Below, piece after piece: positions 12,415-36,375 of a stretch of 64,000 nucleotides of DNA; the stretch's first letter is position 1; each line of letters opens with the position of its first letter. The stretch is taken from positions 6,611 to 70,610 of the forward strand of contig JACPTQ010000072.1 in NCBI GenBank assembly GCA_016192705.1, written 5' to 3'. Both the position numbers and the translations under genes were made by a program. A model generated the notes under the pieces. The model was given only the letters and a program-made list of their open reading frames with translations. It was not told where the DNA came from and searched no databases. This DNA is from Deltaproteobacteria bacterium (GTDB lineage: Bacteria > Myxococcota > JACPTQ01).

Positions 12415-13132
12415 GTGAGACCGACCATCGGATTTTTCTCGACCACGTCGCAAGTGGGATGTCGGGCACTTTGAGGGCAAACCGCTTTGCCTCGCGCGGC
12501 AGAACGGATGCGCCCTCACGCTCAAGGACCGGATGGAGAAAACGCCGCACGAGCGTGCCGCCGCCCTCGTCGAGAAAATCGACCGCGAGCTGAATCTCTC
12601 GAACAGCGCGTTCGCCGCGGTTCTGAACTTCGCCACTGATGACGGCGACTTTGCCATCCCGAAGGTCATCGACGGCCTGCGCGCGCAACTCTGGGAAATC
12701 GATATGGGGCCTATAAAAGAGCCCGGCTTCGTCTTCAAGCTGGACGCTCACACGAGCCGTCTTGGCCGCTTCGACGTTGACGCTTGACCTCGCCGTCCGA
12801 TGGTGAGGCGCGCGAATTTCTATTTGACGCGAGCCGGCGGCGATGTCGACTTCAATCGGGCAAACATCGCCCATCACGCGTTCGTCGATGCGAATCGATA
12901 CATTCTTGCTTGGTGTACATGAAATGATGAGACGGCCGGTTGGAATTGGCCGCGCGGCACCGGGTGTTCTCGGCGGCTGGGACGCGCGCGTCGCATCCGT
13001 TTCTCGGCGAGCATTTGCAACGGCGACGTCGGCAACGCATTTCGTCTCGGACCGCTCGGCGACACGCATCCCTCCGTAAAACGCACCGCCCCCAGAGAGC
13101 AGCGAAACCACGAGCCATGCGCCATCCTTCAT
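12356..13132 (-). CDS. hypothetical protein, possibly PEGA-like domain
   Basis: 258-aa ORF downstream of gspN on the same strand. N-terminal hydrophobic segment; a middle segment loosely resembles PEGA-type beta domains. Convergent 59-bp overlap with the rnr 3' end. Confidence 0.3.
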   Translation of the reverse strand: MKDGAWLVVSLLSGGGAFYGGMRVAERSETKCVADVAVANARRETDATRASQPPRTPGAARPIPTGRLIISCTPSKNVSIRIDERVMGDVCPIEVDIAAGSRQIEIRAPHHRTARSSVNVEAAKTARVSVQLEDEAGLFYRPHIDFPELRAQAVDDLRDGKVAVISGEVQNRGERAVREIQLAVDFLDEGGGTLVRRFLHPVLEREGASVLPREAKRFALKVPDIPLATWSRKIRWSVSLIGLLENQPTGSPSGGAPR

Positions 13133-13199: not shown

Positions 13200-14390
13200 T
13201 CATCGTTTTGAATCGGGCAAAACTGCCGGTTTGGCGGGTCGCGGTGGCATGAGCCCAAACGGCTCAGTTGGCGCCGGAATCGCGCGGTCCGCTCGCGCCA
13301 TGGTTCCGCGAATGCGGAAACCGTACGATTTTGTCGACGAATTGTAGGCCGCCTTAAAATTCCCCATCGACGGGAGCATCGTAAGGATTTGATTGGCCTT
13401 GATGAACGACTCCGTGAAACGCACAGTTATCCATAGGTCGTAGTTCGAGTCCTTGAGGACGTTGTTGAGTCGTACGACGCCCTTGACACCAAGCTCCACG
13501 TCCGGCGACTTGATCCCGACTTTGTCAGGCGTCAGAAAGACCGTCCCCGCTTCCACGTCGAGTACGGCTGAAAGCGGCGTCAACGTCATGGCGGGAATTT
13601 TCTGCGTCGCGTCGACCGTCTCGCCCGGGTTTTCGCCGGGAAGTTTATATTTGTAATCAAATGACGGAAGCTGAAATGGCGAAATTTGGACCTCGATTTT
13701 CCCGATGGTTTCACTCCATCGCATGACGCTCGCTCCTTTGTCGCCACCCGCGGTTGGTCCCGAAAGATCGATTCTCGCGCCGACGGCGCCGGTCGGTGCG
13801 ACACCGAGTTTCGAATGAAGGACGGCGAGGCGGTCCAGGAGGATTCCTTTCGCGTCGGCTCTGACCGACCATTTTTTTGCACCCTTTGAAAAATCTGCGT
13901 TTAGCTCACCATCGGCAACGCGAAGCCCCAGCGAGACGTCAAGCCTCTTAGAAAACAGAAAGGGGAGAATCCCAACCCGCGCATGGAAGTCCTTGATGGT
14001 CAGACTTGGGCCGTCATCGCCCGCCGTACCGCCGCCTTCAGCGCGCGCGCCGGCGCGGCTTTCCGTGCGACGTGCGTCGGGTTTCGCCGATGCGGCCGTT
14101 GCAGCGCCCGATCGCGGATCGATTCGCGCGTCTGCGTCTCCAGCCTTTGTGGTTGCGCTGGGTTTGAAAGTTAACGTAATCGCTCGCGCTTGAATCCCCG
14201 AAAACCGATAAGTCGAAAGCCCCGTAAACTCGACCTTTGCCCCGAGCGCTTGTGAGATGTCGCCTCGGTATCGATCGAGAACGGCGGCGACTGGAAAGTT
14301 CAGATACGTAAAAAAGGCAAGGAGGGCGAGGGCACCGAAGATCGATGCGACAACACGGAGGGCCGCCCGAAGCCGGGTGCGGGCCGCCAT
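13200..14390 (-). CDS. gspN: type II secretion system protein N-like (called by position and topology)
   Basis: 396 aa; N-terminal TM helix (VVASIFGALALLAFFTYL); last gene of the gsp operon, start overlapping the gspM stop. No strong sequence motif recognised. Confidence 0.4.
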   Translation of the reverse strand: MAARTRLRAALRVVASIFGALALLAFFTYLNFPVAAVLDRYRGDISQALGAKVEFTGLSTYRFSGIQARAITLTFKPSATTKAGDADARIDPRSGAATAASAKPDARRTESRAGARAEGGGTAGDDGPSLTIKDFHARVGILPFLFSKRLDVSLGLRVADGELNADFSKGAKKWSVRADAKGILLDRLAVLHSKLGVAPTGAVGARIDLSGPTAGGDKGASVMRWSETIGKIEVQISPFQLPSFDYKYKLPGENPGETVDATQKIPAMTLTPLSAVLDVEAGTVFLTPDKVGIKSPDVELGVKGVVRLNNVLKDSNYDLWITVRFTESFIKANQILTMLPSMGNFKAAYNSSTKSYGFRIRGTMARADRAIPAPTEPFGLMPPRPAKPAVLPDSKR

Positions 14391-15328
14391 CAGCGTTTCC
14401 CTCGTGCGGGGCCCGGCGCTGGCAGCTTTACGGGAAAAGGCGGCTCAACGCGCGGTGTGACAAGGCCGGGTGGCGCAATTTCGCTGGCGCGTGGGCGGAC
14501 AATGGCGTCACGTCGGAGGAGCGAGGGAATGCGGAGGGGCGTTGGCGCCGCAGCGCCCGCCGGAGAGACCACGGGAGCGGGCGGTGATGCCGTTGGCGCC
14601 GGCAATGAAGGCGCTTTCGTTACGGTCGGCGTTGGGACGCTGGGCGCCGAGGGACCTGGCGACGCTTTAGTCGAAGCCGGACCAAGCGCTGGTGCTGCCG
14701 GTGGCGCTGCTCCCGTTGCGCCGCCAGGTCGAGGCGGTTGGCCCCGCGTTCCGGGAGGTTCCGCCGGAGCGCCCGCGGGTGTTTCGCCGCCACCCTTCAA
14801 GTGAAATGTCGACACAGTGAAGCGGACCTCACGGAAGTTGTTGTCGCCCTTGTAGTCGAGACGCAGTTCACGAATGAGCGCCACCGCCTGGCTGCTTTCC
14901 ACCTCCATCAACAGTTTGACGACCTTGTCGTAGGCGACGTTTGTAAGACGCGCCTCCATGCTGACTTCCTCGACGTCGGTTGGTTTAGCCGGCGTTGGAA
15001 CGGGACGGTCTTTGAGGTCGTCGATGGTGACGCCGATGTTACGTGCGACACCCTCCAAGTATCGCCGCAGCTGCGGCGGTTGGATTCGCAGGATGTTTTC
15101 CCGCTCGCGCAACTTGGCCTGCCTCTTCAAGTAAACGTCGCGCCCGCCATAGAGCGTTTCAAGGTGCGCGCGGTTGGCTTCGAGTCGCCGCTCTCGGGCC
15201 TTGTGTTTCCCCGAAGTGATCTGCCAAGCGAGGGCCGTTCCGCCGACGACGATCACACCGGCCAGCACGACAAGGAGTGCGCGATCGCGCGGCGACAGTC
15301 TCTCAAGTGCTGTAGCAAGCGCCGACAT
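14390..15328 (-). CDS. gspM: type II secretion system protein M-like with Pro-rich C-terminal extension
   Basis: Start MSALATALERL overlaps the gspL stop (TGATG). Single TM (LLVVLAGVIVVGGTALAW), periplasmic domain, then a long Pro/Ala-rich tail. Confidence 0.5.
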   Translation of the reverse strand: MSALATALERLSPRDRALLVVLAGVIVVGGTALAWQITSGKHKARERRLEANRAHLETLYGGRDVYLKRQAKLRERENILRIQPPQLRRYLEGVARNIGVTIDDLKDRPVPTPAKPTDVEEVSMEARLTNVAYDKVVKLLMEVESSQAVALIRELRLDYKGDNNFREVRFTVSTFHLKGGGETPAGAPAEPPGTRGQPPRPGGATGAAPPAAPALGPASTKASPGPSAPSVPTPTVTKAPSLPAPTASPPAPVVSPAGAAAPTPLRIPSLLRRDAIVRPRASEIAPPGLVTPRVEPPFPVKLPAPGPARGKR

Positions 15329-16896
15329 CAACAACCCGGCTCGATCGAAATCCGAAACTGGATGCGATCGCTGATGCCGCTCTTTCGTGACTCCGGTATC
15401 GTGACGCGCGTGAAACACTTGTGCGTTTTCAAGTTTTGCTCCACCTCCGAAAGCTGTTCTTGCGAATCGATCTCCCCGCGAACGTCAATCGACCTGGGCC
15501 CAACGGCAAACGACAAAACGTCCAACTTCACTGGGATTTTCGATTCAGGCCGCGCCCGCGCGTACTTTGCGAAATCACCCCAGTAATCAAGCGCGCTGAC
15601 CTCCGGCATCCGCTGCTCGTCAGATGGTCCGCCGACGCCGAGCTGATTCAGCGCCACACTAAACTCAAAAATCTCCTTTCCAAAAATGACCTTTGTAATT
15701 CGTTTGAGCTCGCCCTTTTGAGCGTCCTCTTTCGCCGAGAGGAGACCGCCGCGCGACACCAGCGAGAAAATGAGCAGCGCGACGAGTGCGATGATCGACG
15801 CGGCGATTCGACCGGCCCGCTCCTTGACGATGTCGAGATTGGCCGTCAAAACGAACTCGTCCTTGCGAAGGTTGATCGGCGGAGTCTTTGAGCCGGTGAC
15901 GCCACGAAGCGCAAGCCCAAGCGCCTTACACGCAAGGTCGCCCACCTCCGCTTCGTGGGGAATCGAGTCGGTGGTTCCCGCGAGTGGCCGAAAACGTTCG
16001 ACGGCCGTGCCAAGCTCATGCGCGAGATGCCCGTCAAGACCACGGATTCGCGACCCACCCCCAACGAGCAAAATCCGCTCGACTTGCGCATTTCCGGCTG
16101 CGTGGTAACTGAGCAACGTGCGCTTGATGTCGAGCGCGAGCGGCGCGACAGCCGACAGCGCGGCTCGGCGCAAAATCGCTTCCGTGTCGGTTAACGTCGC
16201 GCGCTCCTCAATCGACAACGAATCGTGCTTAAGGCCGGCCGCCGATTCCTCGTCAACACCGAGGGCCTTTGCGATGGCGCGCGTCACATGGGCGCCGCCG
16301 CGCGACAGCGTTCGCGTGAAGGCAAAATCCCCGTTTTCGATAATGACGATGTCCGTCGTGAGGTGCCCCACGTCGATAAGGGCAATCGGCTCGGTCGCTC
16401 CGGATAAAGACTGCGACGCCAACGACGCAAACGCGAGCGGAGCAAGGGTGATGACCCGCGGTTCCGCCGGAGTCCCCGCGAAAGGCCGCAGTGTTTCGGC
16501 GATGACTTTCTTCGGGGCGACGACAACGAAAACCTCAGAGCCCTCGCGCCGCGACGTCATTCGGAAGTGATCGAAAACGACATCCGTTATTTCGAATGGG
16601 ACAGCCTCCTCGACTTGGAAGGGAAGGGCGGCTTCTATTTTGCGCGGGTCAACAAACGGGAACTGCAAACGCCGCGTGGAGGCGCGATCACCACGCACGC
16701 CGACCACGACGCCCTCGCCGCCGAGTCGATGGTCCGCGACGATGCGAGCGACGGTTGAGGCGACATCTTCAGAGGCGCCGCCGCGGATGCGTTCTTCATG
16801 AAACGCGACAACCCGATAGCTCCGGAACGTCGCAAGGATCTCGACAACTTTGACTGAGTAACTTCCAACGTCGATCCCAATGAAGCGTTGCGGCAT
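15328..16896 (-). CDS. gspL: type II secretion system protein L (actin-like cytoplasmic domain + TM + periplasmic domain)
   Basis: Start MPQRFIGIDVGSYSVKVVEIL (PilM/GspL actin-like fold), TM segment near aa 370, periplasmic C-terminus. TAATG overlap with the gspK stop. Confidence 0.65.
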   Translation of the reverse strand: MPQRFIGIDVGSYSVKVVEILATFRSYRVVAFHEERIRGGASEDVASTVARIVADHRLGGEGVVVGVRGDRASTRRLQFPFVDPRKIEAALPFQVEEAVPFEITDVVFDHFRMTSRREGSEVFVVVAPKKVIAETLRPFAGTPAEPRVITLAPLAFASLASQSLSGATEPIALIDVGHLTTDIVIIENGDFAFTRTLSRGGAHVTRAIAKALGVDEESAAGLKHDSLSIEERATLTDTEAILRRAALSAVAPLALDIKRTLLSYHAAGNAQVERILLVGGGSRIRGLDGHLAHELGTAVERFRPLAGTTDSIPHEAEVGDLACKALGLALRGVTGSKTPPINLRKDEFVLTANLDIVKERAGRIAASIIALVALLIFSLVSRGGLLSAKEDAQKGELKRITKVIFGKEIFEFSVALNQLGVGGPSDEQRMPEVSALDYWGDFAKYARARPESKIPVKLDVLSFAVGPRSIDVRGEIDSQEQLSEVEQNLKTHKCFTRVTIPESRKSGISDRIQFRISIEPGC

Positions 16897-18170
16897 TACT
16901 CTTCCCTCCAATAGAGCAGTTTCCCGCCAGGCGGGCCGTTGTCGAGGATCGCCGTGACTTTCTTGCGCGTGATTTCTGAGGTGTTCGGCTCGTCGCCCAC
17001 GACCTCAACGACGCGGACCTCAATTCTGAAAACGCGACTCTGCACATCGATGGCACCCAAGAGCGCCGCCTCGTCGAGTGCAATCACCGTCTTGAACGCA
17101 TCAACGAACTCTTGCGCGCCCTTAATGCCGCCCCCAAACAGCGGATCGCGTCGACGCAGATACTCGTTCACCGCTTTCTCAAGAGTTGGATTATTCGGAT
17201 CGAGCAGCCGGTCAAATTTGTCCTTCGCGTACGCGCGAATCAACGTCAAAACGACATCGCGACTCGCCGTTGTAACGTTGACGCGGCCCGCACCGTAGAC
17301 CGTGAAATCGGGCTCGAACACTTCGCGCATCAATTTGTCGCTCATGCCGCGCACGAGATGAAGCTCCTTGATGCTGTCGAACTTTGCGTTTTTCGATTTG
17401 TAAGAATCCCTCAACGATTGATAGTGCGACTCTTCGTAGCCACCGCCGATGCGTTCGGTATCGGTGTCCATCCAATCGACGATCGCCGCCGCAAGGTCCT
17501 CGCGCGTCGTCGTCTGGCCGTCGGGGTCGCGTTCTTGAAAGTACTTTTCCCACTCGGGGCCCTGCAGGCGCGCAAGAACGTGCTGCACGATCGCCTTCGA
17601 TTCCTCGATGGTGCAACATTTATTGAGATTGAATTTTCGGTCTTCGTCGGTGACGGTGCACCGCGCCTGAAACGGAAGCCCGAGGAACCCGACGCTTTTC
17701 GGTTTCTTTTCTTTCGGCGCTTCACCGGATCGTGTCGTTGTTGACGGGGCGCCCGGTGGCCGCGTCGGCGAGCGATCGTCTTTTTTCTTTTCTTCGGGCA
17801 TCGTGAGCGCGCCAAGCCCAATCTCCGCAAGGATTTGGTTGATATTGCCGCCCGACGACAGTGTGCGCAAAAGTTCAGTTCGACAAAAGTCGATCGACGC
17901 GGGGCCTACGTTCAGATTCCAAAGTTGAATGTTCGTTCCGATCTGGCGCTGCATCGGGTCAACGAATGTTTTTTGTGCGTGGAGAAGCGCGCGCATCATG
18001 TTGAACGCCGAATGCGCGATTTGGTTCGCCTGAACGTCGTCGCGGGTGAGCGCGCTGCGATCGATTTTCGCCTGCGTGTTGAACTGGAATTCGTACACCA
18101 TCACGGAAAGAACCGCGAGCACCGTGAGGACCATGAGCAACGCGAATCCGTTTGACGCACGCTTTTTCAA
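16896..18170 (-). CDS. gspK: type II secretion minor pseudopilin GspK
   Basis: 424 aa; N-terminus MKKRASNGFALLMVLTVLAVLSVMVYEF (prepilin-like hydrophobic helix with the conserved E); large periplasmic domain. Start overlaps the gspJ stop. Confidence 0.7.
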   Translation of the reverse strand: MKKRASNGFALLMVLTVLAVLSVMVYEFQFNTQAKIDRSALTRDDVQANQIAHSAFNMMRALLHAQKTFVDPMQRQIGTNIQLWNLNVGPASIDFCRTELLRTLSSGGNINQILAEIGLGALTMPEEKKKDDRSPTRPPGAPSTTTRSGEAPKEKKPKSVGFLGLPFQARCTVTDEDRKFNLNKCCTIEESKAIVQHVLARLQGPEWEKYFQERDPDGQTTTREDLAAAIVDWMDTDTERIGGGYEESHYQSLRDSYKSKNAKFDSIKELHLVRGMSDKLMREVFEPDFTVYGAGRVNVTTASRDVVLTLIRAYAKDKFDRLLDPNNPTLEKAVNEYLRRRDPLFGGGIKGAQEFVDAFKTVIALDEAALLGAIDVQSRVFRIEVRVVEVVGDEPNTSEITRKKVTAILDNGPPGGKLLYWREE

Positions 18171-18886
18171 TATTTCACCGGGTCCTTGTACATCATGACT
18201 TTTGTCTGCGTTGTCAGCGTCAGATCCCGCCCTTGGTCATCGAGAATCGTGACTGAGATTTTGATTCGCTCGGGCAGCCGATCCGGTTGGCCGTCGACCG
18301 ACTCCGTGTCCCAACTGTCTTTCCAGCAATCCTCTTTACAGTCCTTTCCGTCCCAATACCGCAACTCGACCTTCTTCACATTCTCCGCGACCACGTGCGG
18401 AATTCCGCCGCGTTCTGGTTCGTCGTCGAGCCGCCGCGACTCTCGCCGCATGAAGTTGTACAGCCCGAGGTCGCGGCCGCGTCGCTTGTCGTCGGCCTTT
18501 TTCCCACGGCCAGCGCGGAACGATTCACGCTCCCCGAAGTAAGTGATTTCGCACTGATCCGACTCATGACTGTTCTTGTAGAGCCGCATGTGCGAGAGCG
18601 ATGCGAAAACGACCTTCGACACGGGACGTTCGTCCTTCGCCTGAAAAATCGTTTTCACGCGTCGCTCGCCGATCGTCGGAATGTTCCGAGAAAGGTAAGC
18701 CATCGACAGGTCGCGAACCATGCGCGTCATGGCCATTCTCACGCCCTCGTACGAATCGAGCTGGCGTTCGAGCTCCTCTTTGGAGTCAAAGCTCTGCGCG
18801 AATCCGCCCCACACGAGTGTCATCATCATCGCCGTCAGGAACACCGCGAGCAGCGTCTCCGCGAGCGTCATCCCTCGCTGCCTCAT
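18167..18886 (-). CDS. gspJ: type II secretion minor pseudopilin GspJ
   Basis: Internal start MRQRGMTLAETLLAVFLTAMMMTLVWGG overlaps the gspI stop (ATGA); prepilin-type N-terminal helix with E at +5. The upstream ORF-track extension is discarded. Confidence 0.65.
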   Translation of the reverse strand: MRQRGMTLAETLLAVFLTAMMMTLVWGGFAQSFDSKEELERQLDSYEGVRMAMTRMVRDLSMAYLSRNIPTIGERRVKTIFQAKDERPVSKVVFASLSHMRLYKNSHESDQCEITYFGERESFRAGRGKKADDKRRGRDLGLYNFMRRESRRLDDEPERGGIPHVVAENVKKVELRYWDGKDCKEDCWKDSWDTESVDGQPDRLPERIKISVTILDDQGRDLTLTTQTKVMMYKDPVKY

Positions 18887-19608
18887 CTCGCCGCCCCCAC
18901 CGAACCGATGCGCCCGGACGTCGCCGGCACCGCAGCCCCCGACGTCGCCGCGCCCACGAGCCCGGCCGCTGCACCCGCCGCTGCGGGCGTAACCCCCGGA
19001 ATCGCACCCGCCGAAATGCCCGCCGGCAGGCCACCCGGCTTCAAGTTGACGAGGTGCGTGACCAGCGAAAACGACTCCCATTCGCGCGAATCTTTCCCTT
19101 CCCTCCATTTGACGGTGACGCGCAACTCGCGAATCAGCTCCTCGAGTTGCTCTTGAATCATCTGCACGGGCCCCTTGAAATTCGCGAGCATCGCGACGAC
19201 GCTTCCGCGCGCATCGGCCGGCGTCGGCCCGCTCGGCCGCGCTGGATCTGACATCGCCGCAGCAGCGGCCGCTTGGACCTCACCCGCTTTCGCCGCCGTC
19301 GCTTCGAGCATCTGCGAAATCGGCAGTTCAATCCGCTTGAGCGTCCACTCACAGCGATACATCGGCAGGTCGCGGTTACACTCCTCGTCGCCTTCCTTAT
19401 CGAACTCCCCAAAGCCGTCGATCGCAAACTGATGTTCGAGATCGAGCACCTTCGCGCGCGCGACGGCGACCGCGCCGATCGTGTCTTTCGCGATGTTTGC
19501 CCTTGAGAATGTTTGGCTCTGCCCCACCATAATGACGCCCATATTGATGGCCAAAACCGCCAGCGCCACCATTACCTCCAGCAGCGTAAATCCTTCTTCT
19601 CTCCTCAC
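18883..19608 (-). CDS. gspI: type II secretion minor pseudopilin GspI (unusually long, Ala/Pro-rich C-terminus)
   Basis: N-terminus MRREEGFTLLEVMVALAVLAI, a classic type IV prepilin-like leader and helix. 241 aa versus about 120 typical. Confidence 0.65.
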   Translation of the reverse strand: MRREEGFTLLEVMVALAVLAINMGVIMVGQSQTFSRANIAKDTIGAVAVARAKVLDLEHQFAIDGFGEFDKEGDEECNRDLPMYRCEWTLKRIELPISQMLEATAAKAGEVQAAAAAAMSDPARPSGPTPADARGSVVAMLANFKGPVQMIQEQLEELIRELRVTVKWREGKDSREWESFSLVTHLVNLKPGGLPAGISAGAIPGVTPAAAGAAAGLVGAATSGAAVPATSGRIGSVGAAR

Positions 19609-20267
19609 GGGATCGTCTCCTGCGCCTCGGCACCACGCTCACGCTTCTCCTCATCCGGCACTGGAATGAGACCCTGTTCGACGTCGACCCGCCCGAGGTA
19701 GGGGTGAACAATGAGCGTGACGATGTGATCGTCGTCCGAGCTGAGATAAATGTACGCGCGCTCGGCGTAACCAAGCGGAAAGAAACGCAGGACCACCACA
19801 CCTTTTTTAACCATCCCCTCAAACGCTGGAGTCCACGCGCCGTGAATCCGCGTCGGCGCAGGGATCTTGACGTTTTTCTTTTCTGAATCGAGAAGCCCCG
19901 GAAAAGGATCGAAGCCACCGCCGCCGCCCGGGAGGGCTGAACTTCCCGTCCCCTCAGTTCTCTTCTTCTCGTCAAAAATTGTCTCACCATCACGAACGCG
20001 CACGACTTCAGGATCGAGGAGGTCGGCTTCAAGCGATGCGTCGAGGCTGTAGGTTTGCGCATCGAGATCGAGCGTGATTTTAACTTGCGCCGACTGCAGC
20101 GCCGCGGTGTCAAACGCCATGCGAATCGTCCCCGACAAGCGCAACGCCGTCGCGTCAACTTCTGACATATCGATGGCGCGCACGCCGAGCGTTACAACAC
20201 CGAACGCGAGCGACACGATGAGCATCACCGCCATGATCTCAAAAAGTGTAAAGCCGGAGCGCTTCAT
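19605..20267 (-). CDS. gspH: type II secretion minor pseudopilin GspH
   Basis: N-terminus MKRSGFTLFEIMAVMLIVSLAFGV, a prepilin-like leader and helix; position between gspG and gspI. Confidence 0.65.
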   Translation of the reverse strand: MKRSGFTLFEIMAVMLIVSLAFGVVTLGVRAIDMSEVDATALRLSGTIRMAFDTAALQSAQVKITLDLDAQTYSLDASLEADLLDPEVVRVRDGETIFDEKKRTEGTGSSALPGGGGGFDPFPGLLDSEKKNVKIPAPTRIHGAWTPAFEGMVKKGVVVLRFFPLGYAERAYIYLSSDDDHIVTLIVHPYLGRVDVEQGLIPVPDEEKRERGAEAQETIP

Positions 20268-20698
20268 CGCTTGTCCGTTTTTCGCTCCTCAGTGAAGACG
20301 TCGTCGTCCGTGCCGTCGGCCTTATCCGGCCCCTTCGAGTGGATCTCGAATCCGCTCGCATCCGACTTCTTAAGATAAAGATACGGCTGGTCCCACGGGT
20401 CGAGTGGAACTTTGCCGCCCTCGAGATATTTTGACACCTCTTCGAGCGTGTCCGGAAACGACCGGTGCGTCGTGCGATACGTTTTCACCGCGGTGTTGAG
20501 ATTCCCGATCTGAATGCGCGCCGTTCGCACCTCGCCTTCCTTCAGCGCATTCACAACCGCGACGCCGACGACCCCCGCAATGAGCCCGATGATGGCGATG
20601 ACGACCATGATCTCGACAAGCGAAAAGCCTCTTGGCCGCGCTCGCGATAGGGGCCTGTCTGCGTCGTTGCCTTCGTCGCTCGCGCCCTCAACGTACAT
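20264..20698 (-). CDS. gspG: type II secretion major pseudopilin GspG
   Basis: Chosen start MYVEGASDEG... gives a 25-aa leader ending RPRG|FSLVEIMVVIAIIGLIAGVVGVAVV. Strongest pseudopilin signature in the cluster; about 144 aa, as expected for GspG. Confidence 0.8.
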   Translation of the reverse strand: MYVEGASDEGNDADRPLSRARPRGFSLVEIMVVIAIIGLIAGVVGVAVVNALKEGEVRTARIQIGNLNTAVKTYRTTHRSFPDTLEEVSKYLEGGKVPLDPWDQPYLYLKKSDASGFEIHSKGPDKADGTDDDVFTEERKTDKR

Positions 20699-20808
20699 AA
20701 GAGTACGCCTCGGGCTCTCACTCCTCGGCGCCTTGCATCCAGACCCTTCTCGCGAGCCCGGATCCAACTTCATCTCGTTCTCTTCTTTCTCTTCCATCTC
20801 TCTCCTCC

Positions 20809-21952
20809 TCACCGCTTACCGATCGATTGGTTGAGTTTCATGATCGGCAAGACAACCGAAAAAATAATGAACCCCACGACGCCGCCCATCCCCACGATCA
20901 GAATCGGTTCAAGCAGTGACGTCAGCCCCTGAAGCTTCGCGTTCACCTGCGTTTCATAATGGTCCGCAACGTTGACGAGCATCTCCTCAAGCTGCCCGCT
21001 CCGCTCGCCGACGGCGATCATGTGCGTCACCATAGGCGGAAACTGCCCAGACCGCTTGAGAGGCTGCGCGATGCTCTCGCCCTCTTTGATGTTGTTGCGC
21101 GCATCGTCGATGACCGCCTCGAGCACCTTATTGTTCAAAATGTTTTTGACGATGCCGAGCGCCGTCAGCAGTTCGACACCGCTCTTTAGAAGCGTCGCAA
21201 GCGAGCCACCACCAGTCGCGCATGAAGTTCGAGACGCCGATGAGGATTTCCGTGGGCAGCGGTAAGTCGGTTTTGATGTGTTTGAAGATCGACATGAGTC
21301 GCGGCACAAGAACCGTAAACAGCAGCACAACGATGAGGCCGCCCAAAATCATCATGATGATGGGGTAGGTGAGGGCGCCCATCACCTTCGCACGCAGCTT
21401 GACCTGCTCTTCGGTGAAGTTGGCGAGGCGCGTGAGCACGAGATCGAGTGTTCCCGACGATTCGCCCGCGCGAACCATGTTGACGTAAAGCGGCATGAAC
21501 GTCTTGGGGTGGTCGCCAAGCGCGTTCGCGAGCGAGGTCCCTTCGTTGACGCGTTCGCGCACCTGCGCGAGGATCGTTTTGAAAAGTTTGTTGTCGGATT
21601 GATCGACGACAGCCGAAAGGGCCTCGACGAGCGGTAGTCCGGCGCCAAGCAGCGTTGCGAGCTGCCGCGTCATCACGGCGACGTCGCCCGCTGGAACGCG
21701 GCGCCGCTTAAAAGGGACAGAGACCTCGAACTCTTTTTTCGTGAGCGCCGCGAGCAAACCGCCACCCGCACCCGCCGCTCCAGCAGCCGCCCTTGCGCGG
21801 CCGCCGCCCGCACCCGCCGCCTCGGAAACCGCCGTCAAGAAAACGCCGTCCTTGCGCAGCACCTGCCTTAGCGCGCGCGCCGACTCAGCATCGCGCACCC
21901 CGGCGATCGCCTTTCCCTTTTCCGTCAACCCTTTGTATTCAAAAACTGGCAT
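20809..21952 (-). pseudogene. gspF: type II secretion inner-membrane protein GspF, disrupted by internal deletion of about 130 bp plus frameshift (or an assembly error)
   Basis: N-terminal 250 aa (MPVFEYKGLTEKGKAIAG ... LIGVSNFMRDWWWL) read in one frame and terminate at 21128. The C-terminal 134 aa (ATLLKSGVELLTALGIV ... FPPMVTHMIAVGERSGQLEEML ... LPIMKLNQSIG) are in another frame, 20809-21215. Compared with GspF/EpsF, about 45 aa (second TM segment and loop) are missing at the junction near 21205-21215, next to a tggtggtgg repeat. Confidence 0.75.
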
Positions 21953-22030
21953 TCAGTTCTTCTCAGTGTCTTCCTCTGTACCTTTGTGTCTCTGTGGTTG
22001 CATTTTCTTCTTCTTGTTCTTCTCTTCTGC

Positions 22031-23776
22031 CTACGCAACATCCTCCTGCGTCACGCGCATCACCTCCGAAATCGTCGTCACCCCCTGAACGACCTTGAGC
22101 AGCCCGTCGTCGCGCAGCGTCCGCATTCCACGCTGGATGGCGAGCTTCTTGATGGTGTTCGAGTCGAGCTTTCGCCGTGTCATGTCGCGCACGTCGTCGT
22201 CGATCATCATGAGTTCGTAAATCCCGACGCGCCCCACGTACCCGGAGTTAAGGCAAGCGGGGCAGCCTTTCTCACGAAACACCGTGAGCCCGGCGCTTTG
22301 ATTGGGATCGAGCCCAAGCTCGACGAGCTCCGCTTCGCTCGGCTGATACGGAACGCGGCACGCTTTGCACACGACGCGCACGAGGCGCTGCGCCAAGACC
22401 GCGAGAAGCGACGACGACAACAAGAACGGTTCAACGCCCATATCGATGAGTCGCGTGAGCGCCCCTGGCGCATCGTTCGTGTGAACCGTTGAAAAGACGA
22501 GGTGCCCCGTGAGCGACGCCTGAATCGCAATCTCCGCTGTCTCAAGGTCGCGGATTTCGCCGACCATGATGACATCCGGGTCGTGGCGTAAAATCGATCG
22601 AAGGCCCCCCGCAAAAGTGAGCTCAATTTTTGGGTTCACTTGGATTTGACTGACGCCCTGCAGCTGATACTCGACCGGGTCCTCGACCGTGATGATCATC
22701 TGGTCCTTCGTGTTGATTTTCGCGAGACACGCATAGAGCGTCGTCGTTTTCCCGCTGCCCGTCGGTCCCGTGACAAGCAGAATTCCGTGCGCGCGCTGGA
22801 TGAGTTCCTGCATCACCTTGTAATTGTCTTCCTGGAAACCGAGCGACGATAAATCGACGAGCACCGCCGACCGGTCGAGGAGGCGCATCGTGATTCGTTC
22901 GCCGTGCGACGTTGGCGCCGTCGCGACGCGAATGTCGATGTCTTTCCCCGCGAGTTTTATCCGAATGCGTCCGTCCTGGGGGAGCCGCTTCTCGGCGATG
23001 TTGAGCCCCGCCATGATCTTCACGCGCGACGAGATCGACGCGTGGTATCGCTTCGCGGGGCGCATGATCTCTTTCAACACGCCGTCAACGCGAAACCGCA
23101 CCGAGATGTCGCGCTCCATCGGCTCGATGTGAATGTCGCTCGCGCGGTCTTTCACCGATTGAAAAAGGAGCGAATTCACGAGGCGAATGATCGGCGCCTC
23201 TTCGTCAACGTCGAGAAGGTCTTGCGGTTCTTCGAGCTCGTGCGCGATGTTTTGGAGGTCGGCCCCTTCAAGATCGTCCATCGCCGCGTCGGTAACGCCA
23301 CTCTTCCGATCGAACACGCGGTTGATGGCGTCGAGGATCGTCTGGCCGGCCGCGAGAACCGGGCGCACCTCACGCCCCAAAATCGCGCACAAATCATCGA
23401 GTGGCGCCGTGTCGACCGGGTCCGCGCACGCAACCTCCACCGCTTCATCGACCCAACGCAACGGCAAAACGCGGTACTGTTTCGCATAGTTGATGGGGAT
23501 CGGCCCGACGACCTCCGTTTGAATCGCCTCGGCCGCGATCGCCTCGACAACCGGCAAGTCAAACTGCAGGCCGAGCGCATGGACGACGTCGGCCTCCGTC
23601 ACGGCCTTCATCCCAACGAGCAACTCGCCGAGTCGCCCCCCACGCTCACGCTGCAACGCGAGGGCTTCGTCGATTCGCGCGACCGTCGTTCGCCCGTGTG
23701 CAACCAGAATCTCGCCGAGCGGGCGCCCGACCCAACTTCGTTCCGCGCCCATCGCTCCAACCCGCATCGGCCTCAC
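22031..23776 (-). CDS. gspE: type II secretion ATPase GspE
   Basis: 581 aa; N1 domain, Walker A LVTGPTGSGKTTTLYA, Asp box, His box, and tetracysteine zinc motif CKACR...GCPACLNSGY. Start overlaps the gspD stop. Confidence 0.9.
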   Translation of the reverse strand: MRPMRVGAMGAERSWVGRPLGEILVAHGRTTVARIDEALALQRERGGRLGELLVGMKAVTEADVVHALGLQFDLPVVEAIAAEAIQTEVVGPIPINYAKQYRVLPLRWVDEAVEVACADPVDTAPLDDLCAILGREVRPVLAAGQTILDAINRVFDRKSGVTDAAMDDLEGADLQNIAHELEEPQDLLDVDEEAPIIRLVNSLLFQSVKDRASDIHIEPMERDISVRFRVDGVLKEIMRPAKRYHASISSRVKIMAGLNIAEKRLPQDGRIRIKLAGKDIDIRVATAPTSHGERITMRLLDRSAVLVDLSSLGFQEDNYKVMQELIQRAHGILLVTGPTGSGKTTTLYACLAKINTKDQMIITVEDPVEYQLQGVSQIQVNPKIELTFAGGLRSILRHDPDVIMVGEIRDLETAEIAIQASLTGHLVFSTVHTNDAPGALTRLIDMGVEPFLLSSSLLAVLAQRLVRVVCKACRVPYQPSEAELVELGLDPNQSAGLTVFREKGCPACLNSGYVGRVGIYELMMIDDDVRDMTRRKLDSNTIKKLAIQRGMRTLRDDGLLKVVQGVTTISEVMRVTQEDVA

Positions 23777-26553
23777 TCCTCCCCATCATCGGTGACCACG
23801 AAACCTTCGCGCACCGGCGGGTCGGCCTTCGGATCGGGAACGCCCTTCGTTTCGCCGCCCTTCACGGGTTTGCCGTCCGGCCCAAGCAGCGGCGCTGGGC
23901 CCTTCTTCTTCTTTTTCTTCCCCTTCAGTTCGTCGCGCTTGTCTTGGGCCTCCTTCGCCTCCTTGTCCATCCGCTCCTGGTCGCGAATCGCCTCCTCGAA
24001 CTTCCCGCCGTACTGATTCACCTCTTCGAGCGGCCCGTGTTTTTTCCCGTAGTCGACCGTGAACGGCGAATCGATCCCAGCCTTCGAGAATTTTTCTAAA
24101 AACTCTTGCCGCTCCTGCATTTTCTTCTCGAAGATGCGTCTAAAATCCTGCGGCGTTCGAATGATGTGGGGCGTCAGGAAGATGAGAAGATTGGTCTTCG
24201 CCATCCGATTGTTCTTCTTGCGAAAGAAGAACCCGAGCACAGGGATGTCGCCGAGAATCGGGATTTTCGACGACCCCTCCGAAACGATGTTCTTCATGAG
24301 CCCGCCCACGACGATCGTGCTCCCGTCTTTCACGATCACCGTCGTCTTGACCGTCCGCTTCGTCGTCTTCGGTTGATTCGTCGTCGGCTCGACTGCACCG
24401 AGCTCCGAGATTTCGTTGTTGACGTCCATCGTAACGTACGACGATTCGTTGATCCGCGGCTTGATGCTCAGTTTCAGCGACACGTCTTCGCGGGTGACGC
24501 TCGTCGTAAGGAGTCCCGGCAGTCCTCCGGCGGCTCCGGCGAGCGCGCCGAGACTCGTCGTTGCGCCGCTGATGAACGGCACTTTTTCGCCGACCGTGAG
24601 CTCCGCGTCTTTGTTGTCGGTCGCGAGGATGTGCGGCGTCGACAAGACGTTCGTGTCCTGGTTCGACTGGAGAAACTGCAAAAACGCACCGAACGATGGA
24701 ATCCCGGTGCCGAGGCTAAACGTGCCGGTGGTGCTCGTCGTTGTTGTTGACGAGCCGAGCGCGCCGGTTGTTCCTGGGACGTCGGGTCCGCGCAGAATGG
24801 CGCCGAATCCCGTGAGCGCCGCCGGCGTCAAGAACAGCGTGTCGGCCGGATTGTTCCCAAACATGAGCGGAACGGTCTGCCCATTGACGCTGAAACCCTT
24901 GCCGCCAGTAAACGAAACTTTCTGGTCCTTTTGGCGGTCGATCGCGACCTCCATGATAACCGTCTCAACAAAAACCTGGTTCCGCCGCATGTCGAGTTTC
25001 GCGATGATGTCTTTGAGCGCGCGGTAATCTTTTTCGGTGCCGATGATAATGAGCGAGTTCGTCGCCTTGTCGGCCGTGATCTTGAGCTCGCCCTCGAACA
25101 GGCTGGCGCCGGCAGCCGCCCCTTTTGCGCCCGGCGCTGTTGGCGGCCTCGGACCTGTTTTTGCGCTTCCGGCCGCGAGACTCGCGAGAACGGTCGCCAT
25201 CTCCTCGGCCTCGGCGTTTTCGAGGTAATGAACGCGCACGCGTCCTTCGCCACCCGGGAGCGGAATGTCGAGCTCTTTGATGAGTTGCACAACTTTGCTG
25301 TACGCACGGTCTTGCGCAACGATGATCAGCATGTTGGTGCGTTCATCGGAAATGATTTTCGACACGCGAACATCCTCGTCGGCCTCGGGCGGCAACATCG
25401 CGGGCGTCGTTCCGGGTGTTGGCGGAGGTTGTGGAGCCGGTGGCGGCGGCGGACGACCGGGCGTTGGCGGTGCGTGGGGCGTGACCGGTTGCGCCTGACC
25501 GCGCGGTTTTTTCCCAGACTTGTCGCCAAACAGCTCGTTCAGTTTCGACGCGATGTCGCTCGCCGTTGCGTGCTTGATCTTGCGCAAGAAGATCCGCTCG
25601 CGCCCACCGGTCGGCACGTCAAGCCGTTCGATAATCTTCAAGATGCGTCGAATGTTCGCCGCGGTGTCAGACAGAATCAACGTGTTCGTTGGAGCGTACG
25701 GCGTCAAGTCGGAGCCGCGGCCCTTCAACTTATTGATAACGTTTTGAATCTCGGCGAGCTCGACGTGCTTGACCGGGATAAGCCGCGTCAGGAAGCGGTC
25801 GTCGTCGGGCACCGGTTCCTTGTCGGGCAGCGTCGTGATCGGCATTTGATTCGCGTCGCGCTGCTCGACAAGCTTCAAGTAGTTTCCCGACGGCACGACG
25901 GTGAGTCCGTTCACCTCGAGCGCCGAAAGGAACGCCTTCCACGCCTCACCGATACGAACTTTGCGCGGCGAGAATATTGAAATCTTTCGGCCTTTGACCT
26001 TCTCAGTCAGGATGAAGTTCTTGCCGGTAAGGTCTGAAATCCACTTAACAACCGCCTCGAGATCCTCTTTCGGCAAATCGAAGCTGAACGCGACGTTCTT
26101 CGGGAATTTTGGGTTGTGCTTAATGTTCTTTGGGTAGTCGGTTTCTGGCAGCGGCCCGCCTGACGACGGCGCGGGGATTGGCGGTCCACCGGCCTTGGCG
26201 TCGCCGGGCTTTTTCGCAGGCACTGCGGTTGTTGCGGCCGCTTTCGCATCGCCCTTGCCGGGCCGTGGCGTAAGGCTCCCAGGTTTCTTCAAATCTTTTG
26301 GTGGAACGAGCGGAATAACAGGATCTTTTTTCCTTGTCGCCTCGAGCACGGGCGCTGCCTTCTTCTTAAAACGCTTCCGTGGCCGCGCCGGTTCTTCATC
26401 CTGCGCCTGTGCTGAAATTGAAAAAGCGAGGACGGGGAGTAACCACAGAGGCGCTGAGATTCGGAGATTGGAGGAGGCTGAAAACCTCTTTCTCTTCCGA
26501 CCTCTCTCACTCTGCGTCTCTGTGGTTTCTCTTCTATCTTCCATCTCTCTCAT
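23773..26553 (-). CDS. gspD: type II secretion secretin GspD with long Lys/Pro-rich N-terminal extension
   Basis: Start taken at MREMEDRR... (ATG 5 nt after an AAGGTGG SD that sits 11 nt after the upstream stop). Signal peptide ...LWLLPVLAFSISAQA|QDEE, N0-N3 domains, and C-terminal secretin domain (VPILGDIPVLGFFFRKKNNRMAKTNLLIFLTPHII). The ORF-track N-terminal 33 aa overlap the upstream PDZ coding sequence and are discarded. Confidence 0.85.
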   Translation of the reverse strand: MREMEDRRETTETQSERGRKRKRFSASSNLRISAPLWLLPVLAFSISAQAQDEEPARPRKRFKKKAAPVLEATRKKDPVIPLVPPKDLKKPGSLTPRPGKGDAKAAATTAVPAKKPGDAKAGGPPIPAPSSGGPLPETDYPKNIKHNPKFPKNVAFSFDLPKEDLEAVVKWISDLTGKNFILTEKVKGRKISIFSPRKVRIGEAWKAFLSALEVNGLTVVPSGNYLKLVEQRDANQMPITTLPDKEPVPDDDRFLTRLIPVKHVELAEIQNVINKLKGRGSDLTPYAPTNTLILSDTAANIRRILKIIERLDVPTGGRERIFLRKIKHATASDIASKLNELFGDKSGKKPRGQAQPVTPHAPPTPGRPPPPPAPQPPPTPGTTPAMLPPEADEDVRVSKIISDERTNMLIIVAQDRAYSKVVQLIKELDIPLPGGEGRVRVHYLENAEAEEMATVLASLAAGSAKTGPRPPTAPGAKGAAAGASLFEGELKITADKATNSLIIIGTEKDYRALKDIIAKLDMRRNQVFVETVIMEVAIDRQKDQKVSFTGGKGFSVNGQTVPLMFGNNPADTLFLTPAALTGFGAILRGPDVPGTTGALGSSTTTTSTTGTFSLGTGIPSFGAFLQFLQSNQDTNVLSTPHILATDNKDAELTVGEKVPFISGATTSLGALAGAAGGLPGLLTTSVTREDVSLKLSIKPRINESSYVTMDVNNEISELGAVEPTTNQPKTTKRTVKTTVIVKDGSTIVVGGLMKNIVSEGSSKIPILGDIPVLGFFFRKKNNRMAKTNLLIFLTPHIIRTPQDFRRIFEKKMQERQEFLEKFSKAGIDSPFTVDYGKKHGPLEEVNQYGGKFEEAIRDQERMDKEAKEAQDKRDELKGKKKKKKGPAPLLGPDGKPVKGGETKGVPDPKADPPVREGFVVTDDGEE

Positions 26554-26702
26554 CACACCCACCTTCACTGGATCTGGTAGTTCAACTTCTTTTTCGTGCC
26601 ACCGCCCGAAAGTTCGATCTGAATTGAGCTCGCATCCTTGAGCCGCCGCCACGCGTCGAACGCCTTGTCGGGGCTATCGATGTCCTCGCCGTTTATTCGT
26701 CG
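26384..26702. repeat. direct repeat copy 1 (about 320 bp, about 95% identical to copy 2): PDZ 3' half + 11-nt SD-containing intergenic + signal-peptide coding 5' end
   Basis: Aligned by eye with 26956-27274. Period 572 bp. Lower-identity paralogy continues on both sides. Confidence 0.85.
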
Positions 26703-27125
26703 AATCACGTCGCCGCTTTTGATTCCAAGCTTCGAAAAAAGACTCTCCGGCCGAACGCTAAACACTTTGATACCCACGGTTTTAGCCCTTTCAAAATAGA
26801 GGGCGACTCGCGGGCACGGCGTGAGTTGGCCCTCTTTGGAGGGTTCGGAAAGCAACTCCTGCCGGGAGATAACGAGATTGGCTTGCGAATCGTTTCGGAT
26901 GGTCTTACGGGATAACGTTTTTGGCAGATGTTTCTTTTGATCTTGTTTTCTCGGTCGCGCCGGTTCTTCATCCTGCGCCTGCGCCGAAAACGAAAAAGCC
27001 AGGACGGGGAGTAACCACAGAGGCCCTGAGATTCGGAGATTGGAGGAGGCTGAAAACCTCTTTCTCTTCCGACCTCTCTCACTCTGCGTCTCTGTGGTTT
27101 CTCTTCTATCTTCCATCTCTCTCAT
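26565..27125 (-). CDS. chimeric GspC-like PDZ protein carrying the GspD-type cleavable signal peptide (predicted soluble periplasmic PDZ paralogue)
   Basis: Start MREMEDRR... with the same SD and spacing as gspD. Signal peptide LWLLPVLAFSFSAQA|QDEEPARPRK is nearly identical to the GspD N-terminus. It is followed by a short linker and a PDZ domain whose C-terminal half (GDVIRRINGEDIDSPDKAFDAWRRLKDASSIQIELSGGGTKKKLNYQIQ) is nearly identical to the GspC C-terminus. No TM anchor or HR domain. Confidence 0.6.
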   Translation of the reverse strand: MREMEDRRETTETQSERGRKRKRFSASSNLRISGPLWLLPVLAFSFSAQAQDEEPARPRKQDQKKHLPKTLSRKTIRNDSQANLVISRQELLSEPSKEGQLTPCPRVALYFERAKTVGIKVFSVRPESLFSKLGIKSGDVIRRINGEDIDSPDKAFDAWRRLKDASSIQIELSGGGTKKKLNYQIQ

Positions 27126-27274
27126 CACTTCCACCTTCACTGGATCTGGTAGTTCAACTTCTTCTTCGTGCCGCCGCGCGAAAGTTCGATCTGAATTGAG
27201 CTCGCATCCTTGAGCCGCCGCCACGCGTCGAACGCCTTGTCGGGGCTATCGATGTCCTCGCCGTTTATTCGCTG
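26956..27274. repeat. direct repeat copy 2 of the gspC-3'/gspD-5' junction segment
   Basis: Partner of 26384-26702. Confidence 0.85.
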
Positions 27275-28102
27275 AATGACGTCTCCGTTCGTGATGCCGA
27301 TCTTCGAATAGAGGCTTCCCGGCCTGATGCTAAACAACTTGAACCCCGCGCCCTTACCCCCTTCAAAGTGCGGGACAATTCGGGCTTCCGTCGCGAGCTG
27401 GTTTAGGTTCGAGAGCCGATTCTGAACCTCCTGACGCGTGATGACGTAATCGCTGTCTGAAAGTTTTTTGATGTTCTTGTCGTCGACGGCGGTTGGTGTC
27501 CCTTCGCTCGCCGAAATCGTTGGCGGCGACGCGGCCGCTCGTGCCGCGCGCGCGCGTTTTGCCTCGTCGTCCATCGCTTCGAGTTTTTCGCGCTTGCCTC
27601 CCTGCTCAAGAATCACAGTGGGTCGCGGCCACCGATCGATTTCAACGATGGTCCACCCCTGAATGGCGCTTCCCATTCGATACAGCTCCGCTTCGGCGTT
27701 TGGAGCGGCTTTGTCTCGAATCGCCGCGAACGACCACGCAGGATTTTGCGCGACGATGGTGCCGACCAACTCCGCGTTCAGCTTGCTGTCTTGAACGTCG
27801 CCTTCCTTTTGTGGCACCAGCGCCGAACCCGCATCGGGCGGTGCTGTCGCGGCTTCGTACGAGTAACTCGAATTGAAAATGTTCGTCTTCAGGAGAGGCA
27901 TCGGATCTTTGCGGACATTTCGCGGCGCGGAAACAACGGGCAGCGGTGCCGGAGGATCGCCCGAAGCTGGCGCCACCGTGAGTGCGCGTTCGATCCAGCT
28001 CGATGCGCCCCAGGAACCGACGAGGGCGCCGAGCGAAACGACGCCGACGTTGACAACCCAAAAGTAGCGCTTAAGAACGGTTTGAAGGGTGGGCAGAGCC
28101 AT
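27137..28102 (-). CDS. gspC: type II secretion protein GspC (TM anchor, HR domain, PDZ domain)
   Basis: 321 aa; N-terminal TM (YFWVVNVGVVSLGALVGSW), Pro-rich linker, HR-like region (LVGTIVAQNPAWSFAAIRD...YRMGSAIQGWTIVEIDRWPRPTVILEQGGKREKLE), and C-terminal PDZ (FKLFSIRPGSLYSKIGITNGDVIQRINGEDIDSPDKAFDAWRRL). First gene of the gsp operon. Confidence 0.7.
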   Translation of the reverse strand: MALPTLQTVLKRYFWVVNVGVVSLGALVGSWGASSWIERALTVAPASGDPPAPLPVVSAPRNVRKDPMPLLKTNIFNSSYSYEAATAPPDAGSALVPQKEGDVQDSKLNAELVGTIVAQNPAWSFAAIRDKAAPNAEAELYRMGSAIQGWTIVEIDRWPRPTVILEQGGKREKLEAMDDEAKRARAARAAASPPTISASEGTPTAVDDKNIKKLSDSDYVITRQEVQNRLSNLNQLATEARIVPHFEGGKGAGFKLFSIRPGSLYSKIGITNGDVIQRINGEDIDSPDKAFDAWRRLKDASSIQIELSRGGTKKKLNYQIQ

Positions 28103-35300: not shown

Positions 35301-35681
35301 ATTTATTCAAAGTTTTTTTGGGGGGCTTCCGTCACCGTTCCGATGCCCCCAGTCAGCGCAATCGCATCTAAAAAGACCAGGTAGCAGGTTGATGGTATTC
35401 GTCCGTGACTCTCAACAATTTCGTTTTGGCGCGAGTTATTCGCGTGCACCCAAGAGGCGAACCCGCCGGGTCGCATGGGCACGGCGAGCCGGTCGGCGAT
35501 CTGCCGTCACAAGGTCCACCCCCAGCGACTCAGGGCCTGTGCATTTTTCCGCACCGTGTTAGGGTGAGAACATCGAAGGTTCGTGTTCCCACGGTGTTTG
35601 AGCGCCCCGAGAACAGGCGGAGGACGGACACGCTGCGAGATTTGACCGCGTTTCAGGGCGTTTGTTAGATTGAGAGCAACG

Positions 35682-36365: not shown

Positions 36366-36375
36366 AAGTCGGAAA

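Follow-up and report, generated by a model that had tools for sequence, protein, structure and literature searches.

The block of minus-strand genes between positions 13,200 and 28,102 of the window (the whole 64,000-nucleotide stretch analysed here) is very probably a single gsp operon. It is predicted to encode a type II secretion system (T2SS) of the Myxococcota type ("delta-type") in an uncultured groundwater deltaproteobacterium related to Myxococcota. This T2SS is of a known kind, found throughout Myxococcota and already annotated publicly. What is new beyond the known annotation is a chimeric gene between gspC and gspD, here named C2, and two deletions, one in gspF and one in purD. A sequence-only reading, made from the letters and a list of their open reading frames (ORFs), had described the locus as a complete operon of all twelve gsp genes with atypical components. 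Profile, homologue and contig comparisons, which make up the present analysis, do not uphold this completeness: gspF is split in two ORFs by a frameshifting deletion of 149 nucleotides (nt), and a 13th ORF, C2, had been overlooked together with its 572-nt tandem repeat. Reading the sequence alone gave the canonical gene order, yet overlooked both the splitting of one gene and the presence of a further short ORF. The annotation should read as a standard Myxococcota-type T2SS with gspF disrupted in this assembly, not as a "complete, atypical" one.

By exact-sequence match, the window was located on a 71.7-kb contig from a public groundwater metagenome-assembled genome (MAG), "Deltaproteobacteria bacterium", with locus tags HYY84_*. 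NCBI already names GspN (MBI3074158), GspG (MBI3074165), GspE (MBI3074166) and GspD (MBI3074167), and labels both GspC (MBI3074169) and the extra ORF HYY84_18835 "hypothetical". In a collection of 185,579 species, the closest genomes belong to Myxococcota, and the identity of their GspE does not exceed 62%. Window ORFs were scored against NCBIfam and Pfam models, each with its curated cut-off. Approximately 40-60 related Myxococcota loci were compared, and single-run assemblies (L081, L082, L083, L085 and L087) served as comparison contigs for the same strain. Complete gspD, gspE and C2 genes were seen only in the NCBI MAG. Exact-protein searches with GspC, two start versions of GspE, the form of C2 with 219 amino acids (aa) and a neighbouring phosphodiesterase found no contigs.

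The identity of the system is carried by the profile scores. The sequence-only reading had itself proposed assignment to a type IV pilus or Tad system as the test of its claim, and the T2SS identity survives that test. T2SS models were matched above their cut-offs, and type IV pilus models below theirs:

GspC_delta (NF041515): 282 bits against a cut-off of 150, passes
type_II_gspD (TIGR02517): 516 bits against a cut-off of 351, passes
type_II_gspE (TIGR02533): 712 bits against a cut-off of 630, passes
GspF in its intact form (TIGR02120): 483 bits against a cut-off of 424, passes
GspN, Leptospira type (TIGR04411, T2SS_GspN_Lepto): 87.9 bits against a cut-off of 50, passes
PilB: 610 bits against a cut-off of 676, below
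PilQ: 207 bits against a cut-off of 284, below
PilC: 333-363 bits against a cut-off of 700, below

The GspD-type secretin required in a T2SS was recognised by TIGR02517, by its N0, three Secretin_N and Secretin domains, and by PDB matches; its best PDB relatives are T2SS GspD proteins (E 3e-67), with PilQ at ~1e-18. The major pseudopilin, also required, was recognised in GspG by Pfam T2SSG (52.4 against a cut-off of 21) and N_methyl (31.3 against 21.2). Moreover, GspC matched Pfam T2SSC (27.9 against 27) as well as PDZ_2, and GspE matched Pfam T2SSE with an E value of 5e-144.

Some components do resemble pilus proteins. The N-terminus of GspL scores best against PilM, GspE has an MshEN domain and reaches 610 bits on the PilB model, and some minor pseudopilins show weak matches to ComG minor pilin models. 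A type IV pilus, MSHA-like pilus or Tad system in place of a T2SS is nevertheless extremely improbable, and was rejected on the NCBIfam scores relative to their cut-offs. Indeed, PilB, PilQ and PilC remain under curated cut-offs whereas GspE, GspD and GspF exceed theirs, the T2SS-specific GspC, GspK and GspN are present, and the locus is syntenic with Myxococcota gsp loci. Profile searches of the cluster ORFs returned no match for PilT, PilN, PilO or PilP, and none for TadZ, RcpC, Flp or another Tad-specific family. The likeness to Tad systems consists of weak sub-threshold cross-matches (TadA-type ATPases, 58 bits against 373; RcpA in PDB, E ~9e-11).

As a T2SS operon, the cluster forms an unbroken, co-directional row of ORFs on the minus strand from gspC (27137-28102) to gspN (13200-14390), in the order C-D-E-F-G-H-I-J-K-L-M-N. 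Canonical order and strand, as first described, were borne out by this row and by the Pfam and NCBIfam assignments. The features are as follows:

27137-28102, minus strand: gspC, 321 aa, MBI3074169; N-terminal transmembrane helix, HR region and C-terminal PDZ
26565-27125, minus strand: C2 (HYY84_18835), 186 aa from ATG 27125; annotated as 219 aa from GTG 27224
23773-26553, minus strand: gspD, secretin, 926 aa from ATG 26553; ORF 23773-26652, 959 aa
22031-23776, minus strand: gspE, ATPase, 581 aa from GTG; annotated as 573 aa, MBI3074166
21204-21952, minus strand: 5' fragment of gspF, codons 1-250; ORF 21128-21952, 274 aa; Pfam T2SSF domain 1
20809-21203, minus strand: 3' fragment of gspF, out of frame; ORF 20809-21330, 173 aa; Pfam T2SSF domain 2
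20264-20797, minus strand: gspG, 177 aa from ATG 20797 or 144 aa from ATG 20698 (NCBI); ORF 20264-20812
19605-20267, minus strand: minor pseudopilin in gspH position, 220 aa, leader MKRSG; N_methyl
18883-19608, minus strand: minor pseudopilin in gspI position, 241 aa; N_methyl
18167-18886, minus strand: gspJ, 239 aa; ORF 18167-19108; N_methyl
16896-18170, minus strand: gspK, 424 aa from TTG; no Glu5
15328-16896, minus strand: gspL, 522 aa; PilM/actin-like cytoplasmic domain, transmembrane helix and periplasmic domain; ORF 15328-16911
14390-15328, minus strand: gspM, 312 aa; N-terminal transmembrane helix, T2SSM-like domain and Pro/Ala-rich tail; ORF 14390-15418
13200-14390, minus strand: gspN, 396 aa, MBI3074158; TIGR04411 match, no Pfam family

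The genes overlap through ATGA at G/H, GTGA at H/I, ATGA at I/J, TAATG at K/L and TGATG at both L/M and M/N. A GTGA overlap at D/E is conditional on GTG 23776 being the start of gspE (the NCBI start is ATG 23752), and a TTGA overlap at J/K on gspK starting at TTG. The coupled junctions of the sequence-only reading were found as described, except that D/E and J/K need GTG and TTG starts passed over by NCBI or Prodigal. A promoter and terminator scan across the operon gave counts at chance level.

The break in gspF lies at the junction 21203|21204, where 149 nt are missing relative to L081, L082 and L083, which come from three separate sequencing runs. On either side of the junction, these contigs match the window with 100% identity (the 5' fragment to positions 1-1487 of L081), and they encode an intact 430-aa GspF. 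Past the junction, the frame of the 5' fragment reads on to a stop at 21128. The missing codons, 251-299, encode transmembrane helix 2 together with the first part of cytoplasmic domain 2. Distant relatives all have their gspF halves ~130-160 nt farther apart than the window does. The 149-nt segment had not been relocated elsewhere in the window. The deletion junction had no match in JGI metagenome contigs, a collection from which the strain may be absent. To our knowledge, GspF is a component required in every T2SS studied; an intact form is missing from the window and present in L081-L083 of the same strain. Because of the frameshift and the loss of transmembrane helix 2, the operon as written would be non-functional.

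A second deletion was observed in purD (GARS; 9221-10435, plus strand), where 5 nt (CGACG) are missing near 9578 relative to the otherwise identical L085, whose purD is intact (404 aa). Over ~32 kb compared with single-run contigs, zero single-nucleotide polymorphisms (SNPs) were detected outside the C/C2 repeat; the differences are two frameshifting deletions, of 149 nt in gspF and 5 nt in purD. Two knockouts of important genes without any point differences favour an assembly or curation artefact in gspF, which we hold to be the likelier origin, with a sizeable minority share left to a real mutation.

If the 149-nt deletion were real, the cluster would be a decaying, non-functional T2SS turning into a pseudogene cluster. 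The deletion is indeed present in the deposited contig, and gspF is unannotated as a protein, with no accession between GspG (MBI3074165) and GspE (MBI3074166) in NCBI. Moreover, no flanking repeat was found at the gspF or purD junction that would explain a collapse by the assembler. Decay is unlikely, however: the other eleven gsp genes have intact ORFs and conserved motifs, and three independent same-strain assemblies, free of SNPs, carry an intact gspF. The second frameshifting deletion, in the core gene purD of the same contig, fits local assembly errors better. In addition, gspD is essential in Myxococcus xanthus (PMC12475490), so that a true deletion would mean a lineage surviving without a system essential there. 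In the natural population, the operon would be intact. Any inference of secretion capacity from this MAG has to take into account that three independent same-strain assemblies contradict the gspF break.

The extra ORF, C2, is a chimera, in which a secretin-type start region and signal peptide are fused to a linker and a PDZ domain of the GspC type, the HR domain and the transmembrane anchor being absent. At its N-terminus, C2 hardly differs from GspD, and at its C-terminus it hardly differs from the end of the GspC PDZ. The PDZ is recognised by Pfam PDZ_2 (29.1 against a cut-off of 27), the GspC_delta match being confined to model positions 175-311. C2 has the same Shine-Dalgarno sequence and start context as gspD. 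Its product would be a soluble periplasmic PDZ protein with a secretin signal peptide. The chimera is framed by two repeat copies:

26932-27231: repeat copy R1, from the 3' end of gspC through an 11-nt spacer that contains the Shine-Dalgarno sequence into the 5' end of C2
26360-26659: repeat copy R2, from the 3' end of C2 through an 11-nt spacer that contains the Shine-Dalgarno sequence into the 5' end of gspD

In a repeat search, R1 and R2, which are spaced 572 nt apart, were 93% identical across 300 nt. Alignment revealed a repeat core of ~320 nt that is 97-100% identical between copies, with flanks ~65% identical. The duplicated unit extends from within the PDZ-coding part of gspC to just beyond the gspD signal peptide. 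Judged from this arrangement, C2 is born of a 572-nt tandem duplication across the gspC/gspD junction. In the core, gspC and C2 differ by a synonymous divergence (dS) of 0.086, compared with 0.92 for the same codons between gspC and the gspC of L088, a close relative, which indicates that gene conversion took place recently. The diverged half has a dS of ~1.1 and a ratio of nonsynonymous to synonymous divergence (dN/dS) of ~0.46. These values support divergence and a later homogenisation of the C2 ends with their parent copies by gene conversion.

We also considered C2 as a pure assembly chimera. This was rejected, as the repeat boundaries fade from ~98% to ~65% identity and enclose ~250 nt of unique diverged sequence; the gradual decay of similarity at both repeat ends argues for an evolutionary origin. 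C2 is the sole member of its cluster among ~15 billion proteins and is absent from L088, where gspC abuts gspD. A homologue search with the GspD N-terminus recovered no same-strain copy, not even the NCBI GspD, and is uninformative about C2. Related arrangements exist elsewhere: two tandem full-length gspC paralogues are present in L009, L012, L013, L025, L032, L042 and L050, and a short ORF beside gspD in L041 (9120-9791) has a signal or transmembrane segment and a PDZ only. Duplication of gspC is therefore recurrent in Myxococcota, and the theme is not new; the chimeric form of C2 is.

Whether C2 is a gene at work is a closer question. It could be a non-functional by-product of the duplication, or a co-assembled strain variant, and we give this possibility a chance only a little short of even. 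It agrees with the presence of C2 in this assembly only, with the relaxed constraint indicated by the dN/dS of ~0.46 in the diverged half, with a third-position GC content (GC3) of 0.58 against ~0.7 in the neighbours, and with the lack of the secretin-binding HR domain. However, the ORF has remained open across ~250 nt diverged by ~35%, its PDZ profile is still above the Pfam cut-off, and its Shine-Dalgarno and start context match those of gspD. Extra GspC paralogues also recur in other Myxococcota T2SS loci, including the short PDZ-only ORF of L041. A working C2 may be a soluble periplasmic PDZ module that uses a secretin signal peptide and is kept in register with its parents by gene conversion. 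It may tune or compete for cargo recognition, perhaps of the 2,323-aa secreted orphan encoded upstream of gspC. That C2 is such a working new component or, as a second and independent reading, that the gspF deletion is real, is taken jointly to be rather improbable. C2 exemplifies a new gene that arose when a stretch spanning a gene boundary was duplicated in tandem, gene conversion later homogenising part of it, within GspC, a family that duplicates repeatedly in Myxococcota.

An 18-nt purine-rich motif, AACCACAGAGACRCARAG, was also noticed in three coding-strand copies, compared with 0.02 expected by chance. They lie on the minus strand at 21982-21999 (gspE-gspF spacer), 26510-26527 (after the gspD start) and 27082-27099 (after the C2 start). 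The gspD copy pairs with an inverted partner at 26441-26458 in a long hairpin (z = -2.9). RNA folding of the motif regions gave no notable fold in the C2, E-F or L088 copies.

Several points weigh against our reading of the locus. GspH, GspI, GspJ, GspL and GspM fall short of curated family cut-offs and were assigned by weak profiles, prepilin N-termini and position. Scores for G, H, I, K and L were below NCBIfam cut-offs, and J and M had no T2SS-specific NCBIfam match. Peptidase_A24, the family expected for a prepilin peptidase, was unmatched in the cluster ORFs and in selected ORFs of at least ~170 aa from the 64-kb window. C2 was seen in this one assembly only; the single-run contigs break within the C/C2 repeat (L087 ends at 27131), which accounts for the lack of a C2 copy from an independent assembly. 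The two deletion junctions, as stated above, offer no repeat to explain a collapse. Finally, the function of the operon is read here from its sequence, expression and secretion being predicted.

The individual components were then compared with what had been claimed for them. GspD opens with a signal peptide and a Lys/Pro-rich extension; N0 and three Secretin_N domains, which include a Pro-rich insert, lead to the Secretin domain, and the C-terminal tail is rich in Lys. Pfam N0 begins at ORF residue 195, leaving ~105 mature Lys/Pro-rich residues before it, in good agreement with the ~110 residues first given for a 959-aa GspD. With the NCBI start, GTG 26349 (858 aa), the signal peptide is lost together with some of the N-terminal extension; ATG 26553, preceded by a Shine-Dalgarno sequence, is the more plausible predicted start.

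In GspE, the MshEN domain scored 59.4 against a cut-off of 23.1, and residues 19-70 (window 23560-23720, minus strand) matched the cyclic di-GMP (c-di-GMP) motif NF053729 with 47.6 against 38. The MshEN motif is a tandem 24-residue RLGxx(L/V/I)(L/V/I)xxG...LxxxLxxQ at the ATPase N-terminus (PMC5013675). GspE has this motif in common with the MshEN ATPases, V. cholerae MshE and a P. aeruginosa T2SS-type ATPase (PMC5013675), its own N-terminus exceeding the motif cut-off; direct reading of the sequence shows that its second half-motif has Lys in place of the consensus Gly. GspE is probably a c-di-GMP receptor, and c-di-GMP control of the T2SS is predicted.

The PilM/actin-like N-terminus claimed for GspL was confirmed by a PilM_2 match (86.8 against a cut-off of 27, E 1.8e-24), and the best PDB match is PilM (1e-19); the gspL model TIGR01709 reached 28.6, under its cut-off of 65, and relatives have a counterpart of GspL in the same place of the locus. 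In GspM, Pfam T2SSM scored 23.2, under its cut-off of 27.8, and spans model positions 2-155 of 160; the Pro/Ala-rich C-terminal tail described earlier is real and ~110 aa long. The cluster ORFs gave no Peptidase_A24 match, in line with the earlier statement that gspO is not in the cluster. This is unremarkable because many bacteria use one prepilin peptidase for type IV pili as well, with its gene at another site.

Among the pseudopilins, GspG has a predicted cleavage site RPRG|FSLVE and scored 76.9 on TIGR01710, under the cut-off of 88.9. Its leader, given as 25 aa by the sequence-only reading, is 24 aa from ATG 20698, which is approximately right, but 57 aa from ATG 20797, which is preceded by GGAGGAG. 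GspH scored 42.9 on TIGR01708 (cut-off 80) and has positional homologues in relatives. The 241-aa length of GspI stands as reported; the protein is lengthened by Ala/Gly/Pro-rich low-complexity stretches and scored 25 on TIGR01707 (cut-off 44). GspJ scored 24.7 on Pfam T2SSJ (cut-off 28), and same-position homologues were found by tblastn in nearly all relatives. GspK matched Pfam T2SSK_1st with 48.4 against a cut-off of 26.2, and NF037980 with 103.5, under the cut-off of 130.

The qualification of these components as atypical was assessed against the related loci:

Mature GspI: 235 aa in the window; 184-314 aa in relatives
GspL: 522 aa and PilM-like in the window; mostly ~510-640 aa in relatives
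GspG leader (from an ATG backed by a Shine-Dalgarno sequence): 24 or 57 aa in the window; 14-34 aa in relatives
GspD before N0: 160 aa in the window; median 80 aa and maximum 175 aa in relatives
GspM: 312 aa in the window; 181-206 aa where full length was measurable in the six relatives with positional homologues

On these sequence comparisons, the long GspI, the PilM-like GspL, the long GspG leader and the GspD extension are features of the clade and not of the locus. Only for the GspM tail, absent from relatives in which M was found, does the term atypical hold; this Pro/Ala-rich tail appears to be lineage-specific.

The suggested synteny comparison with Myxococcus also turned out favourably, the order C-D-E-F-G-H-I-J-K-L being common to dozens of Myxococcota loci, among them Myxococcus, Archangium, Corallococcus and Pyxidicoccus. 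The loci of Myxococcus vastator (L002), Archangium gephyra (L010), Corallococcus (L005 and L006) and Pyxidicoccus (L014) have the order C-D-E-F-G-H-I-J-K-L(-M-N) in common with the window. They also have a GspC_delta-type GspC, a PilM-like GspL of ~520-535 aa, a long GspI, a long basic GspG leader, and a GspD of ~800-900 aa with a pre-N0 extension. Among such loci, the system that has been studied is that of M. xanthus (PMC12475490). Identity to the window is at most 62% for GspE, ~38% for GspD and 25-36% for the pseudopilins. The window differs from these loci in the C2 chimera between C and D, the ~110-aa Pro/Ala tail of GspM and, in this assembly, the broken gspF.

The close uncultured relative L088 (JGI metagenome 3300045072) encodes a 321-aa GspC (P0009), with ~83% nucleotide identity over gspC. 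Like the window, it has a Lys/Pro-rich GspD N-terminal extension and, upstream, genes for a Crp-like regulator and a metallo-beta-lactamase-fold phosphodiesterase. Unlike in the window, gspD comes immediately after gspC, C2 being absent, and the regulator pair lies ~100-170 nt from gspC with no 2,323-aa ORF between them.

Gammaproteobacterial T2SSs (Klebsiella Pul, Vibrio Eps, E. coli Gsp) have in common with the window the twelve core functions, secretin domains N0-N3, the GspE tetracysteine motif and Walker boxes, and G|F/M-T-L-x-E pseudopilin sites; the PDB matches of the window secretin are to GspD proteins of these systems. They differ in several respects: in the window, the sequence of GspL resembles PilM and not Pfam T2SSL, GspI has approximately twice the length, the leader of GspG measures 24-57 aa against less than ~10, GspN belongs to the Leptospira type (TIGR04411), the MshEN motif is present in GspE, and gspO is absent from the cluster.

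The mechanism can be outlined from established T2SS knowledge carried over by homology. The GspE hexamer, probably responding to c-di-GMP through its MshEN motif, would dock on GspL, at its actin-like domain, and on the platform protein GspF. The hexamer would drive polymerisation of the GspG pseudopilus under a tip of GspH, GspI, GspJ and GspK, and the pseudopilus would push folded periplasmic cargo through the GspD secretin. GspC is expected to join the platform to the secretin N0, its PDZ contributing to cargo selection, with GspM and GspN as putative accessory platform proteins. The pseudopilins would be matured by a prepilin peptidase encoded elsewhere.

A different substrate is conceivable, in that the machine, or at least its secretin, might mainly export a non-protein polymer. 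In M. xanthus, GspD is reported to form slime nozzles needed for gliding, and its depletion abolishes slime secretion and A-motility (PMC12475490). The window GspD is an orthologue-level relative of Myxococcota GspD, with 37-39% identity over ~700 aa. We regard polymer export as quite improbable here, since the window offers no pointer to cargo and the organism is distant from M. xanthus (GspE 62% identical) and is not known to glide; moreover, protein-secretion roles remain according to the same paper (PMC12475490).

Directly upstream of gspC on the same strand, a 2,323-aa ORF with a signal peptide was observed (28278-35249, minus strand), without a match in Pfam or NCBIfam. It is present in the single-run contig L087 and absent from L088, where the Crp-like gene abuts gspC. 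Its product is a possible lineage-specific T2SS cargo, as a candidate from sequence. A homologue search with it returned nothing, not even itself, probably through low-complexity saturation, and is uninformative.

Divergent from the gsp side, at 35670-37137 (plus strand), lie genes for a cyclic nucleotide monophosphate (cNMP)-binding Crp-like regulator and a metallo-beta-lactamase-fold class-II cyclic-nucleotide phosphodiesterase. Their closeness to gspC is kept in L088 (273-1731), and this conserved regulator pair hints at cyclic-nucleotide control of the gsp operon.

On the other side, 67 nt downstream of gspN and on the same strand, a 258-aa PEGA-domain protein is encoded at 12356-13132 (minus strand). 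No homologue of it was detected in any related T2SS locus, and it is therefore probably not part of the system. Farther along the window, a 192-nt repeat, 91.7% identical, is present at 57460-57651 and 58624-58815. Position 49131 is the exact end of all four single-run contigs covering that region, which suggests another repeat or a variable boundary.

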